A DNA stretch of 64,000 nt from assembly GCA_964016885.1 (NCBI GenBank), contig OZ024762.1, positions 20,026,001 through 20,090,000 of the forward strand, written 5' to 3'. The notes below the pieces were generated by a model. The model was not told the DNA's origin and ran no database searches. It saw only the letters and a list, made by a program, of their open reading frames with translations. A program made the position numbers and the translations under genes. Source of the stretch: Eledone cirrhosa (lineage: Eukaryota). Below are positions 42,605 to 63,857 of the stretch, one piece after another (the stretch's first letter is position 1; every line of letters starts with the position of its first letter).

Positions 42605-43125
42605 ATATAATATATAAGGTCAAAAGATGGTTAAATGAGTTCCATGTATTTTATTATGCGCATTTCAAAAACAAATATCATCATGCAATAACATTTGTGT
42701 TTTCATCAGATAAAATAGGAAGACATGATATGAAGGTTAAAAAACACTTGTGGATAGTGCAGTTTTAAATCAGCAACATGGAACTCATTTAACCATCTTT
42801 TGACCTTATATATTATGTATACTCCAGTCCTACAAACTATAGAGTGCTTCTTATCCGATATCTGCATTGCTTTATTGTACTACAATAAAACTCACCTCCT
42901 ACATATATGTATATATATATATATATATATATATATATATATATATATATATACACACATATATATGTAGAAGTTATATTTAATTTGTTGGGATACAACA
43001 AGCAAATATTTTTATAACTGATATAAAGCACTCAACAAATTATTGGAGTAAAAATTGGTGTCCTTGAAATATGTATAATGAAATAAATATGGTTTTATAA
43101 ATATAGTTTCCATTTGTTAATATAT
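42605..43125. mobile_element. Hammerhead-bearing fold-back element (putative non-autonomous Penelope-like), same modules as 61103-61580
   Basis: Inverted arms ~42605-42646 / ~42776-42818, a shared ~90-bp terminal segment, (TA)n, then a second module aagttatattta...atagtttccattt. Confidence 0.65.
42647..42717 (-). ncRNA. Type-I hammerhead ribozyme
   Basis: - strand: TATTTTAT CTGATGA [AAACACAAATGTTATTG CA TGATGATATTTGTTTTT] GAAA TGCGCA TA ATAAAATA. Perfect 8-bp stem I, long stem II, palindromic loop III, AUA cleavage triplet. Confidence 0.85.
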
Positions 43126-43209
43126 TATATACATATGTATATATATATATGTATATATACATATGTATGTATGTATGTGTGAAGAGATGTCAACATTAAT
43201 AGACCTGTT

Positions 43210-43460
43210 ATCTATATATGTGAAACAGAGAATGTTTGTCTGTTTGTCTCCCTAAAACTTGAGAACCACCCAACCGATTGTTTTCAAACTTTACACATGT
43301 AATACTTATGGTCCTGTGAGTGTTTTGAGCAAAAAGAATTTCTAATTTTCAATGCCTCAATGCCCTACGGAGCGCATTAGGCGATTTCTCTCTATACCTC
43401 TTAGTCTCTCTTTTTTTAGATAGATACATAGATATAACGCTGCGCCCTTATAATATCTGT
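43210..43460 (+). mobile_element. Possible non-autonomous Helitron-like 5' fragment
   Basis: A|TCTATATAT start followed by (gtct/gttt)n and ccaaccgatt..caaacttt, a layout typical of Helitron 5' ends; no 3' CTRR/hairpin identified. Confidence 0.35.
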
Positions 43461-43642
43461 CTGTATGCCTGGCTGTCTGCATTATGACATTATGACGTAG
43501 TTGTGTGTGTGTATATATGTATATATAGTATGTAACGTTTTTCAAAATATTTACTTCTGCATTCACAGATTGATTTATTTTAGTTTCAAAAGATCCCGTT
43601 ATATATATATGAATGTATGTATAGTATATTTGATAATGTACT

Positions 43643-43828
43643 GTATGTTTATTTAAAAACATTTTGAAGACCATTCGCTACGAGTTTTAAAGTAGTGACT
43701 ACATCACTTACTTGGTCTCGGCAAGTTGCTTCCCTTTCCTTTTGCCGAGACCAAGTAAGTGACGTAGTCACTTCTTTACAACTCATAGCGAATGGTCTTC
43801 AAAATTGTTTTAAAATAAACATACATTA
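43643..43828. repeat. Imperfect inverted repeat (~85-bp arms)
   Basis: gaagaccattcgcta...tcacttacttggtctcggcaa / ttgccgagaccaagtaagtga...tagcgaatggtcttc. Confidence 0.85.
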
Positions 43829-43965
43829 TATTTTCAAATGCACTATACATACATTCATACATACATCGCTATTTCAGGGTACCAATACTAATATATATAT
43901 ATATATATATATATATATATATATATATATAGAGAGAGAGAGAGAGAGAGAGAGAGAGAGAGAGA

Positions 43966-44309
43966 GGTACATGGCTTAGTGGTTAGAGCATTGCCCTTGC
44001 AATCGAAAGGTTGTGAGTTCAATTCTCAGACCGGGTGATGTGTTGTTTCCTTGAGCAAGACATTTTATTTCACATTGCTCCAGTTTACTCAGCTGTAGAA
44101 ATGAGATGATAAGGACTGGGGTCCCTATCATTCCACTGCAAAGTGGTCGTGGGGGTGCCGCGGCAAAAAGGCACCATGCACTCACTGTAAATGAGGTTGG
44201 TGTTAGGAAGGGCATCCAGCTGTAGAAATCAAGCCAGAATCAGTTCCCGTCCCACCCTTGCAAGCAGGGAAAAAGCGGATGTAAAATGAAATGATGATGA
44301 TGATGATGA
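43966..44309 (+). mobile_element. Full-length SINE-B (tRNA head, CORE-like body, RTE-shared 3' tail, (GAT)n)
   Basis: A box TGGCTTAGTGG, B box GAGTTCAATTC, tccttgagcaagac core, aggaagggcatcc segment, tail cccgtcccacccttgcaagcagggaaaa. Confidence 0.9.
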
Positions 44310-45204
44310 TATATATATATATATATATATATATATATATATACATATATATATATATATATATATATATAAAATAAAATAAATAAGTCAAATATTTAAA
44401 ATTTGGCTTCGTTTATTACTGCTATATATATTTCGGTGACATCCATCTTTATATATATATATATAGTAAGGAGACCACGAGTCTGGTTAGATATCAAGTC
44501 TGGTACAATCAATACTGATTGTACCTTGAGTCGATCAACCATGAAACACATGTCAAACATGAAAAATTCTGGGCTAAAATGTCCTTCATAATATTTCACA
44601 CAAATCACTCTCTGCAAGCTTTCTTTGATCAACCTCTTCTCTCCATCAGTGACTGTGTGTGAGTCTATGTGTATATGTATGTGTGTGTGTGTGTGTGAGT
44701 GCATGTGTGTGCATGTGTGTGTATGCATATTTATATGTGTGAGCGTGCATTTTTGCATGTGTGTGTGTGTGTGTGTGTGAATATGTATGTGTAAGTTTGT
44801 TTCTGTATGTATAGGCGTATGGGCATATGTATGTGTGTGAATGTGTTTATGCATGTATGTGTACTGAGAGCGTGTGTGTGCACGTGTGTGAATGTATGTG
44901 AGTGTGTTTGTGCATGTGTGAGTGTATGTGCATATGTGTGTGTGTGTATGTGGAACAGTGAACGATTGTTTTAGTTGTTGTACCAAGCTTATTTTCCCTG
45001 TCCACTGAACTGTAAAGACATTATAGAGAGATTCCTTCAAGATCTAGAAAGCTGTACAGAAGATAAGTTGACAGTTTGGAATCAAAGCAGTGAGTGACAG
45101 GCGTTAAATGAAACAATACCTAAACATACTATGTAGTCAGGGTTGATGACTTTGCTAGACAAATAACTCCACATTGCAACACAAACACACCCACATGTGT
45201 ATAT

Positions 45205-61102: not shown

Positions 61103-61580
61103 ATATAATATATAAGAACAAAAGATGGTTAAAAGAGTTCCATGTATTGAAATGCGCATAATAAAATACATGGAACTCTTTTAACCATCTTTTGTTCTTA
61201 TATATTATGTATACTCCAGTCCTACAAACTGTAGAGTGCTTCTTATCCGATATCTGCATTGCTTTATTGTACTACAATAAAACTCACCTCCTACATATAT
61301 ATATATATATATATATATACATGTAAAGTTATATTTAAATTGTTGGGTTACAACTAGTAAATATTTACAACTGATATAAAAGCACTCGACAAGTGTCAGT
61401 TCAACTTTTCAAATACAAGTCGATGTTGTACGGTATGTCAAATCTATTTATCTATAAAACTGTTTATATTGTATTTTGTCTGAGGAAGGCATAGCATATT
61501 GTTAATATGATATCCCTGAAATATATATAATGAAATAAATATGGTTTTATAAATATAGTTTCCATTTATTTAATATCGTA
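61103..61580. mobile_element. Hammerhead-bearing fold-back element (putative non-autonomous Penelope-like)
   Basis: Same two modules as 42605-43125; the first hairpin retains a half hammerhead and the second module holds a full one. Confidence 0.65.
61472..61537 (+). ncRNA. Type-I hammerhead ribozyme
   Basis: TATTTTGT CTGAGGA [AGG CATAG CATATT GTT AATATG ATATC CCT] GAAA TATATA TA ATGAAATA. 8-bp stem I with two G-U pairs, palindromic loop III, AUA triplet. Confidence 0.75.
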
Positions 61581-61595
61581 TATATATATATATAT

Positions 61596-62848
61596 CATCA
61601 TCATCATCAGGTTTAGCGTCCGTGTTCCACGCTTGCATGGGTTTGGACGGGGGTTTTCCCACTTGAGGCAAGAGTGGTTGTCTTGCTCGCATAGGACTGT
61701 CTGGCGGGTTTTCTACAGTTGGATGCCCTTCCTAACACCAACCACATTTACAGTGTGGGGCTGGGAGGTTTTTACCGTGTTGCCTACACGGCCACATTAC
61801 AGCGTGGACTGTCTGGCGGGTTTTCTACAGCTGGATGCCCTTCCTAACACCAACCACATTTACAGTGTGGGGCTGGGAGGTTTTTACCGTGTTGCCTACA
61901 CGGCCACATTACAGCGTGGACTGTCTGGCGGGTTTTCTACAGCTGGATGCCCTTCCTAACACCAACCACATTTACAGTGTGGGGCTGGGAGGTTTTTACC
62001 GTGTTGCCTACACGGCCACATTACAGCGTGGACTGTCTGGCGGGTTTTCTACAGCTGGATGCCCTTCCTAACACCAACCACATTTACAGTGTGGGGCTGG
62101 GAGGTTTTTACCGTGTTGCCTACACGGCCACATTACAGCGTGGACTGTCTGGCGGGTTTTCTACAGCTGGATGCCCTTCCTAACACCAACCACATTTACA
62201 GTGTGGGGCTGGGAGGTTTTTACCGTGTTGCCTACACGGCCACATTACAGCGTGGACTGTCTGGCGGGTTTTCTACAGCTGGATGCCCTTCCTAACACCA
62301 ACCACATTTACAGTGTGGGGCTGGGAGGTTTTTACCGTGTTGCCTACACGGCCACATTACAGCGTGGACTGTCTGGCGGGTTTTCTACAGCTGGATGCCC
62401 TTCCTAACACCAACCACATTTACAGTGTGGGGCTGGGAGGATTTTACCGTGTTGCCTACATGGCCACATTACAGCGTGGACTGTCTGGCGGGTTTTCTAC
62501 AGCTGGATGCCCTTCCTAACACCAACCACATTTACAGTGTGGGGCTGGGAGGTTTTTACCGTGTTGCCTACACGGCCACATTACAGCGTGGACTGTCTGG
62601 CGGGTTTTCTACAGCTGGATGCCCTTCCTAACACCAACCACATTTACAGTGTGGGGCTGGGAGGTTTTTACCGTGTTGCCTACACGGCCACATTACAGCG
62701 TGGACTGTCTGGCGGGTTTTCTACAGCTGGATGCCCTTCCTAACACCAACCACATCTACAGTGTGGGGCTGGGAGGTTTTTACCGTGTTGCCTACACGGC
62801 CACATTACAGCGTGGACTGTCTGGCGGGTTTTCTACAGCTGGATGCCC
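61596..62848 (-). repeat. SINE-B-related element whose 112-bp internal segment is amplified ~10.3x
   Basis: ggactgtctggcggg recurs every 112 bp from 61694 to 62814; the units are nearly identical. Confidence 0.95.
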
Positions 62849-63032
62849 TATATATATATATATATATATATATATATATATATATATATACGTAGGTCCC
62901 GGGTTGAGTCGGGGATAACCACAGTAAGTAAGGTACTCAATACATGGCAGAGTAAAATTTTTTTATTTTATAGAAGGAGCTTCTACAGGACTAGTACTGT
63001 TTCATTCAGATGAAATCTTCAGGAAGCCCTGA

Positions 63033-63782
63033 ATATATATATATATATATATATATATGTATATATATATATATATGTATATATATATATATATATATAT
63101 ATGTATATATATATATATATACATCATCATTTAACATTTATTTTCCACGCTAGCAATATATATATATATATATATATGTGTGTATGTGTATGTATGTATA
63201 TACATATGTATATATATGTGTGTATGTATATACATATGTATATATATGTGTATATGTATGTATATATATATGTGTGTGTATGTATATATATCTGTGTATG
63301 TATGTATATACATATGTATATATATATATGTGTGTATGTATATGTATGTATGTATGTATGTATATATATATGTGTGTATGTATATATATGTATGTAATGT
63401 ATCTATATGTATGTATGTATATATATGTATATATATATGTGTATGTATATATATGTATGTATGTATGTATATATATGTATGTATATATATGTATGTATGT
63501 ATATATATGTATGTATGTATGTATGTATTTGTATGTATGTATATATATGTTTATATATGTATGTATGTATATATATGTATATATATATGTGTGTATGTAT
63601 ATATATGTATGTATGTATGTATATATATGTATGTATGTATATATATGTTTATATATGTATGTATGTATATATATGTATGTATGTATATATACGTATGTAT
63701 GTATATATGTATATGTATACATATATGTATGTATGTGTGTGTGTATATATGTATATATATGTGTGTATATATATATATGTGT
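63033..63782. repeat. (TA)n/(TATG)n microsatellite
   Basis: Directly visible. Confidence 0.95.
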
Positions 63783-63791
63783 CTAAATATA

Positions 63792-63857
63792 TACTTTATT
63801 ATATATATTTCAAAGGTACTGTGTTGTTTTTGCAGTACGTCCTCATCAGACAAAATA
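63792..63857 (-). ncRNA. Type-I hammerhead ribozyme
   Basis: - strand: TATTTTGT CTGATGA [GGAC GTACTG CAAAAACAACA CAGTAC CTTT] GAAA TATATA TA ATAAAGTA. 8-bp stem I with two G-U pairs, palindromic loop III, AUA triplet. Confidence 0.8.

Follow-up and report, generated by a model that had tools for sequence, protein, structure and literature searches.

Hammerhead ribozymes in FUT8 introns of Eledone cirrhosa as probable terminal-repeat copies of three coding Penelope-like element families

The stretch of Eledone cirrhosa DNA analyzed here (GenBank assembly GCA_964016885.1, contig OZ024762.1, positions 20,026,001 to 20,090,000 of the forward strand; 64,000 nucleotides, referred to here as the window) carries two exons of FUT8 and three complete hammerhead ribozyme motifs, sites A, B and C, which appear to be pieces of Penelope-like elements (PLEs). 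All three are intronic, as an earlier note on this DNA had proposed: the exons bordering them lie on the plus strand, with site A in the intron after the exon at 39493-39607 and sites B and C together in the next intron, and the following exon falls at window position 65311, past the window edge. A type I hammerhead descriptor (CUGANGA, stem II, GAAA, helix III, UH and a stem I of at least 5 bp), composed post hoc with the sites already known, returned exactly these three matches on both strands of the window (Table 1; the match at site C runs 63860-63789, where stem I reaches 11 bp). A similar hit rate in shuffled sequence had been named as one result that would speak against the motifs, and 300 block-wise dinucleotide shuffles gave 0.003 matches per window, none with a palindromic helix III. 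As first read from them, the three sites have AUA preceding the predicted cut and A-U (sites A and B) or G-U (site C) at pair 10.1-11.1; each also has an 8-nt palindrome (AUGCGCAU or AUAUAUAU). The earlier inventory was incomplete, as it missed two half-hammerheads (at 43058 and 61147) and a fourth full hammerhead with a damaged stem II, which begins at 63989 (+) at the window edge and is the inverted partner of site C, sense to FUT8.

Conservation of the ribozyme was assessed in an alignment of 61 distinct genomic copies, chosen by their core, after one internally deleted copy of 62 was omitted. The core CUGANGA ... GAAA ... UH was invariant in all 61 of these core-selected copies, and 98.2% of cells were paired, compared with 31-65% in slid controls. 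Two-sided changes occurred at 8 of 18 pairs (stem II 5/6, helix III 2/4, stem I 1/8) and in 93 cells against 33 ± 6 in shuffles, although cell counts are inflated by kinship among the copies. The covariation across genomic copies that the earlier note had called for is thus present above both controls, with its signal in stem II and the centre of helix III. As that note had also seen, helix III stays palindromic while its sequence changes, the central four bases remaining self-complementary as AUAU, GCGC or, by wobble, AUGU. Its view that structure rather than sequence is conserved holds for these two elements but not for stem I, which is kept in sequence and is nearly invariant. Likewise, the stem IIs of A, B and C do pair and covary, but they are not unrelated, having in common a 3-bp base, a C.Y mismatch at 10.4/11.4 and a distal helix.

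Among the 62 distinct copies, pair 10.1-11.1 was A-U in 28, G-U in 27, G-C in 5 and another combination in 2 (R-U 55/62), so that the canonical G10.1-C11.1 closing pair is not the rule here. Position 10.4/11.4 was a C.C or C.U mismatch in 61/62 and the triplet was AUA in 61/62. Several published hammerheads of Hydra-clade PLEs have G-U, A-U or U-U adjoining the core (PMC8557442, File S2), and AUA is natural in the (+) hammerhead of eggplant latent viroid, where it was the slowest of four triplets tested (PMC1636495). Judged by sequence and pairing pattern, the ribozymes are minimal type I hammerheads of the Penelope, dimer-type kind. Local Rfam scans gave no hammerhead family at E<=10 at sites A, B and C, and weak sub-threshold matches to C/D small nucleolar RNAs were rejected; in a scan of the window, the best 150 of 490 matches were all simple-repeat microRNA artefacts. 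Folding predicts that at all three sites the active monomer is 4-7 kcal/mol less stable than the minimum-energy fold and that closing helix III within one molecule costs ~3 kcal/mol at each site, whereas 8/8 pairs are possible between two molecules; the predicted helix III duplex is stronger in family A (-10.5 versus -3.2 kcal/mol). Because the central four helix III bases cannot serve as pairs in one molecule, we infer selection for an intermolecular helix III.

The motif is abundant in the 3.0 Gb genome, with its 5' half present 81,230 times (control 298) and its 3' half 82,657 times (control 8), a density of about one per 37 kb. In the first 10 Mb of contig C1, an exact 3' half stood at the right spacing for 62 of 96 5' halves, and extrapolation from this fraction suggests at least ~50,000 complete motifs in the genome. 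Exact tags of families A, B and C occur 13,038, 5,073 and 7,106 times. The best named protein relative comes from Argonauta, as fits an octopod host. One C-family insertion recurs four times ~55-58 kb apart (L232, L234-L236; contig C2, 201.83-202.00 Mb), pointing to segmental tandem duplication. Near an A-family element (L188, 150-200) lies another kind of hammerhead-like motif, whose stem II is short.

Coding elements were found for all three sites, with terminal repeats that match sites A and B at 96-98% identity and are closely related to site C. Divergent hammerhead pairs a few kb apart flank frames encoding a reverse transcriptase (RT) and an endonuclease, and a genome search with that RT-endonuclease protein gave 131 scored matches, 95-100% identical to it, of which many had open frames of ~745 codons. 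The full family B unit at locus L088 measures 3757 bp and comprises hammerhead B, an ATG 186 nt past the cut, an open reading frame (ORF) of 737 aa, a 1.3-kb 3' region, a second hammerhead B and (TA)n; site B matches its upstream repeat at 97% identity and has an inverted tail arm. Site A shares 96% identity with the terminal repeat of the L016 family, in which an 809-codon open frame is found (L016, L185). The family A unit is 3555 bp, a 799-aa ORF exists, and for 17 of the 20 best endonuclease matches an A hammerhead follows downstream in the same orientation. For site C, a hammerhead of the window's own subfamily lies ~260 nt upstream of a homologous ORF (residues 1-475) at L246, and hammerheads of a sister C subfamily flank ORFs in L251, L253-L256, L258 and L259. 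The hammerhead resides in the terminal repeat of the element families, and B copies have their 3' ends in TA-rich DNA in 85 of 88 cases. The earlier inference of several mobile, (TA)n-associated Penelope-type families is supported by these coding elements and copy ends; its description of them as short non-coding families has to be abandoned given the coding parents at L088, L016/L185 and L246, and the kind, which it had left open, is already described as Hydra-clade PLEs.

The element proteins are ~47-55% identical to one another (A versus B 47%) and are encoded by a single ORF with the RT followed by a C-terminal endonuclease, carrying YRDD and IIY/YVG or LIY/YFG words. DKT, not DKG, is found in families A, B and C (46/49 aligned proteins; DKG 0/49), and the A and B proteins have a CxCX5C linker, CxxC..E and CxH and lack CCHH; a C copy (L081) also shows CxCX5C, and no Cys pair lies between the GIY-like and YIG-like words. 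DKT, CxCX5C, CxxC and CxH around E/N and the absence of CCHH are the marks given for the Hydra clade in section 11 of Craig et al. (2021, PMC8557442), where Hydra-clade PLEs are described as targeting (TA)n and carrying hammerheads and an Octopus bimaculoides family is listed. That family, Hydra-1_Obim, is similar in its single ORF with all of these marks, in its (TA)n insertion, hammerhead near the 3' end, inverted partial copies and one-sided tail, and by eye the element protein follows it block for block (PMC8557442). The coding elements therefore carry the motifs of Hydra-clade PLEs, and on sequence comparison sites A, B and C are assigned as pieces of three such families.

Several points weigh against this assignment, which is built on motifs and a by-eye match. 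A Pfam search of three ORFs was blank, with GIY-YIG matched by one of 49 aligned relatives (E 0.0011), and a PDB profile search of the ORF gave no match. The N-terminal RWK position reads RWR in B and RWI in A (RWK in 24/49 aligned proteins), the units of 3.6-3.8 kb exceed the '<3 kb' of Hydra elements, and the one-sided tails are ~85-100 nt here rather than 30-40. The length is given as 'generally' below 3 kb in PMC8557442, as a descriptive and not a diagnostic trait.

The ends of the copies were analyzed in copies sampled by a tag downstream of the cut, at the first 100 listed places on contig C1. Two 3' end-points were observed. In family B (n=92), 48 ends were near (+50 to +58 from the predicted cut), 40 far (+135 to +143) and 4 elsewhere, and 29 of 30 inverted pairs combined one near and one far end; in family A (n=101) the counts were 54, 40 and 7, with one of each in 15/19 inverted pairs. 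Families C and D/E showed the same two modes. This two-point pattern corresponds to the one-sided tail of PLEs, accounted for in vitro by two internal RT starts (PMC11167929). A small bulged hairpin (RCTCC...GAGY) was noted just past each of the two 3' end-points in families A, B and C (L088 1771-1880; leaders of L189, L246 and L259), and by eye a word similar to this hairpin stands near the 3' end of the published Hydra-2_Amil.

At the other end, the copies pile up well upstream of the ribozyme. In family A, 30 of 63 short copies begin at -130 to -115, 23 of these at -126 to -124 (p 6e-15 versus uniform), including 15 exactly at -124, between TC and ATATG, with unrelated flanks; in family B, 14 of 45 short copies begin at -139 to -133, between TC and ACTGCC (p 1e-10). 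These counts omit 38/101 A and 37/92 B copies that are long or whose alignment runs into the low-complexity zone, and 10 further B copies with subfamily or indel stops. Of the C-like copies, a query-biased sample of 45, 38 stop at or short of the same TC-ACTGCC word on the upstream side, and in family C a TATA box lies 29-33 nt before TCACT in 31 of 33 copies extending further upstream. The 5' peak coincides with homologous words resembling an initiator (Inr) in several families. PLE transcripts have been described as beginning in the upstream repeat (PMC2377424), and a TATA plus TCACT has been noted in a rotifer PLE repeat (PMC3846280). No excess of 5' ends was seen near the predicted cut (B 0/45, A 3/63 short copies, ~5 expected). 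More cut-site ends in family A, with its stronger helix III, were hinted at in the first 30 loci and were gone in the larger sample. A downstream promoter element at +28 to +32 was also dropped, as it fits B and one C subfamily but 0/40 of the other C subfamily and 0/37 A. Families B-E have in common the word GGTATGTCA ~37-40 nt past the putative RNA start and upstream of the hammerhead (for example at window 61431-61440), possibly a promoter or protein-binding element.

Since the 5' peaks fall at an Inr-like word and the cut site is not enriched, the main short product is probably a run-off copy of the uncut RNA leader. With the coding-element link, the two fixed 3' end-points, the head-to-head arms with one end each, the 5' pile-up and the lack of a cut-site excess all observed directly, we consider it probable that A, B and C are terminal-repeat short copies, in (TA)n, of three coding PLE-like families and likely complete reverse transcripts of the front end of uncut RNA. 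Element RNA would start at the Inr-like site within the upstream repeat. The RT/GIY-YIG protein would nick (TA)n DNA and, by analogy with a lizard PLE that in vitro has two internal RT starts, uses mainly uncut RNA as template and has a protein-assisted ribozyme (PMC11167929), copying could begin at either of two internal points ~50 and ~140 nt past the ribozyme. Use of the leader copy of these start points would lead to run-off at the RNA 5' end after 170-280 nt and hence to abundant ORF-less pieces, while the ribozyme would be weak and cut solely as a dimer or with protein help. The window copies are consistent with run-off, beginning at -118 (A), at -130 (B; family peak -139 to -133) and, in the C plus arm, at the putative start word. 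This interpretation has weaknesses of its own, as the RNA start is placed solely from DNA ends in the sample limited to one contig and reduced by the omissions given above, and the pile-ups could in part be a fold-back or template-switch hot spot.

An alternative explanation would be that the short copies are ordinary 3' ends truncated at random from the 5' side, the pile-up being an RT stall or fold-back hot spot, with the same family assignment. Truncation at the 5' end and inverted partial copies are indeed the pattern described for PLEs (PMC8557442), about half of the short copies begin elsewhere, scattered from the peak to the ribozyme, and many junctions are palindromic. However, random truncation does not readily account for a family A peak that is nearly a single base, made by 15 copies with unrelated flanks, or for a peak position that matches homologous Inr-like words across several families and, in family C, has a TATA box at -30, and we find this explanation unlikely.

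The run-off copies bear on another possibility, that the pieces are independent non-coding retrozyme-like families, transcribed, self-cleaving, circularising and moved in trans. ORF-less copies are in the majority, run-off copies hold the RNA start and could be re-transcribed, and retrozymes reportedly derive from PLE repeats (bioRxiv 10.64898/2026.07.22.740005). Yet the copies are 96-98% identical to the repeats of coding elements without family-specific extra sequence, the parents with matching sequence exist (L088, L016, L246), and the copies span the predicted cut instead of starting there. Non-LTR (long terminal repeat) retrozymes are marked by head-to-tail arrays of 150-450 nt units (PMC7229834), whereas A, B and C are single or head-to-head copies, and an independent retrozyme origin appears very improbable.

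Beyond the preferred run-off origin, a more speculative and rather doubtful idea is that the palindromic helix III is mainly an RNA dimerisation signal. Two RNAs paired through the double hammerhead would be presented jointly to a dimeric RT, copying of one from the near start and of the other from the far start would yield head-to-head insertions with unlike ends, and the leader run-offs would be the PLE equivalent of retroviral strong-stop DNA, supplying a promoter-bearing repeat. If this were true, run-off copies would re-activate full-length elements through that promoter-bearing repeat.

With regard to FUT8, the intron placement is most likely incidental and the copies are probably passive passengers, because the genome-wide density of the motif is about one per 37 kb, so that three in 64 kb is near the average, and two of the three sites are antisense. 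Sites A and C, being antisense, cannot act on the FUT8 pre-mRNA strand. Sense copy B could in principle serve the host as an intronic ribozyme cleaving FUT8 pre-mRNA, perhaps in a pair with the fourth copy, which lies 2.5 kb downstream; both are sense, lie in one intron and have AUAUAUAU as helix III, with 8/8 pairing possible. Against this, stem II of the fourth copy is broken, folding predicts that this copy is tied up with antisense C in one long hairpin (-164.7 kcal/mol over 350 nt), the predicted probability of B's active stem I in context is near zero, and the repeat to which B is 97% identical is young and very common. Such use of site B seems most improbable, and on these folding predictions a host role in FUT8 is unlikely; the finding is of little consequence for this gene. 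The head-to-head C pair (63789-64000; L001 1790-2100) could form a ~130-bp double-stranded RNA stem in FUT8 pre-mRNA, a likely target of adenosine-to-inosine editing.

The insertions in the window are summarized in Table 1. The plus arm of the second family A insertion holds the hammerhead 3' half only and a long tail, and the family C plus arm runs ~200 nt beyond the window to the far end-point (L001 1929-2205). At 42600-43125 and 61100-61580, family A stands beside a D- or B-family insertion across one (TA)n tract, and such tracts seem to be repeatedly hit. A composite A+B element at these two places (42.6-43.1 kb and 61.1-61.6 kb) was considered and found unsupported, as the junction arms are not alike and a different family stands next to the A insertion at 43 kb. 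Other repeats in the window include a tandem array of about ten copies of a 112-bp unit directly after site B (61695-62900), akin to a common short repeat elsewhere in the window; a repeat resembling a short interspersed element in tandem arrays at 121-870, 25156-25750 and 37839-38399 (126, 207 and 189 bp units); and a perfect inverted repeat of ~70 bp per arm with a (TA)n core at 42115-42279, probably another fold-back insertion. Broken reverse-transcriptase-like coding fragments lie at 5918-6970 (-), which we take to resemble a long interspersed element of the RTE type.

Table 1. FUT8 exons, hammerhead motifs and family A-D insertions in the window (positions are window coordinates; ends as -118, +53 and the like are relative to the predicted cut)
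Feature	Position	Strand	Remarks
FUT8 exon upstream of site A	39493-39607	+	Pfam PF19745, profile 156-201, E 4e-07; AG/GT borders
FUT8 exon between A and B	49266-~49508 (3' border approximate)	+	Pfam PF19745, E 4.6e-44
Hammerhead A	42647-42717	-	Helix III AUGCGCAU; predicted cut between 42655 and 42654; antisense to FUT8
Hammerhead B	61472-61537	+	Helix III AUAUAUAU; predicted cut between 61529 and 61530; sense to FUT8
Hammerhead C	63792-63857	-	Predicted cut between 63800 and 63799; antisense to FUT8
Family B tail-only fold-back remnant	25971-26132		No hammerhead; 94% to L088 1750-1857
Family A short copy	42601-42775	-	96% to L016; from -118 (family peak -124) to near end-point (+53) in (TA)n
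Inverted family A tail arm	42776-42903	+	96% to L016 3188-3354; reaches far end-point (+136), then (TA)n
Family D fold-back insertion	42967-43125	- and +	Inverted tail 42967-43057 (-), hammerhead 3' half and short tail 43058-43125 (+); 94-95% to L010
Second family A fold-back insertion	61100-61292	- and +	Minus arm 61100-61146, from 4 nt past cut; plus arm 61145-61292
Inverted family B tail arm	61317-61394	-	96% to L088 1780-1857; far end-point
Family B short copy	61401-61580	+	97% to L088 1585-1771; from -130 to near end-point in (TA)n
Family C minus arm	63789-63920	-	3' tail ends ~21 nt past cut, shorter than the family's usual +50 to +55
Family C plus arm	63929-64000	+	From putative RNA start (ACTGCC, 118 nt before cut); fourth hammerhead begins 63989

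Comparison with known systems places these elements close to published ones while setting them apart in detail. In Hydra-1_Obim the hammerhead sequence is different, with an odd palindrome of 9 nt and a GU-H triplet, as in most of the Hydra hammerheads listed (PMC8557442); in those described here the palindrome is even (8 nt), the triplet is AUA, stem I is U-rich and 8 bp long, and stem II has a fixed C.Y mismatch. The minimal PLE hammerheads of Cervera and de la Pena (2014, PMC4209133) are likewise type I with a long helix II and a palindromic helix III, occur as thousands of mostly single copies with opposite-strand pairs 100-700 bp apart, and are predicted to be active as dimers. They differ in a conserved G10.1-C11.1 after a bulged base and in numbers, with up to ~9,000 motifs per genome against ~81,000 half-motifs here. 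The Poseidon PLE of Anolis carolinensis (Frangieh et al., 2024, PMC11167929) resembles the present families in its two internal RT starts, AT-rich targets and uncut RNA template, but it belongs to another clade, its starts lie inside the ORF and its tail is 30-40 bp, whereas both putative starts here lie in the 5' leader before the ATG. Metazoan non-LTR retrozymes (PMC7229834) are also type I, with a weak palindromic helix III, AT-rich sequence and very high copy number (up to 120,000 in axolotl); they form head-to-tail arrays, in contrast to the pieces of coding-element repeats found here. A recent study of Octopus vulgaris repeats reports 31 active Penelope-like families, in passages that make no mention of ribozymes (PMC13282606). 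In the literature searched, which did not extend to Repbase or Dfam, neither these families nor the fixed C.Y mismatch nor front-end run-off copies were found described. The kind is already published, as dimer-type hammerheads in PLE repeats and Hydra elements in octopus, and what is new are three families that look undescribed.

By our estimate the E. cirrhosa genome contains roughly 50,000 or more complete hammerheads of one design that are undetected by Rfam. The copy ends mark the likely RNA start and two likely RT starts to the base, and many ORFs are intact and near-identical. The function of PLE hammerheads and the regeneration of terminal repeats thereby become directly testable in the Hydra clade.

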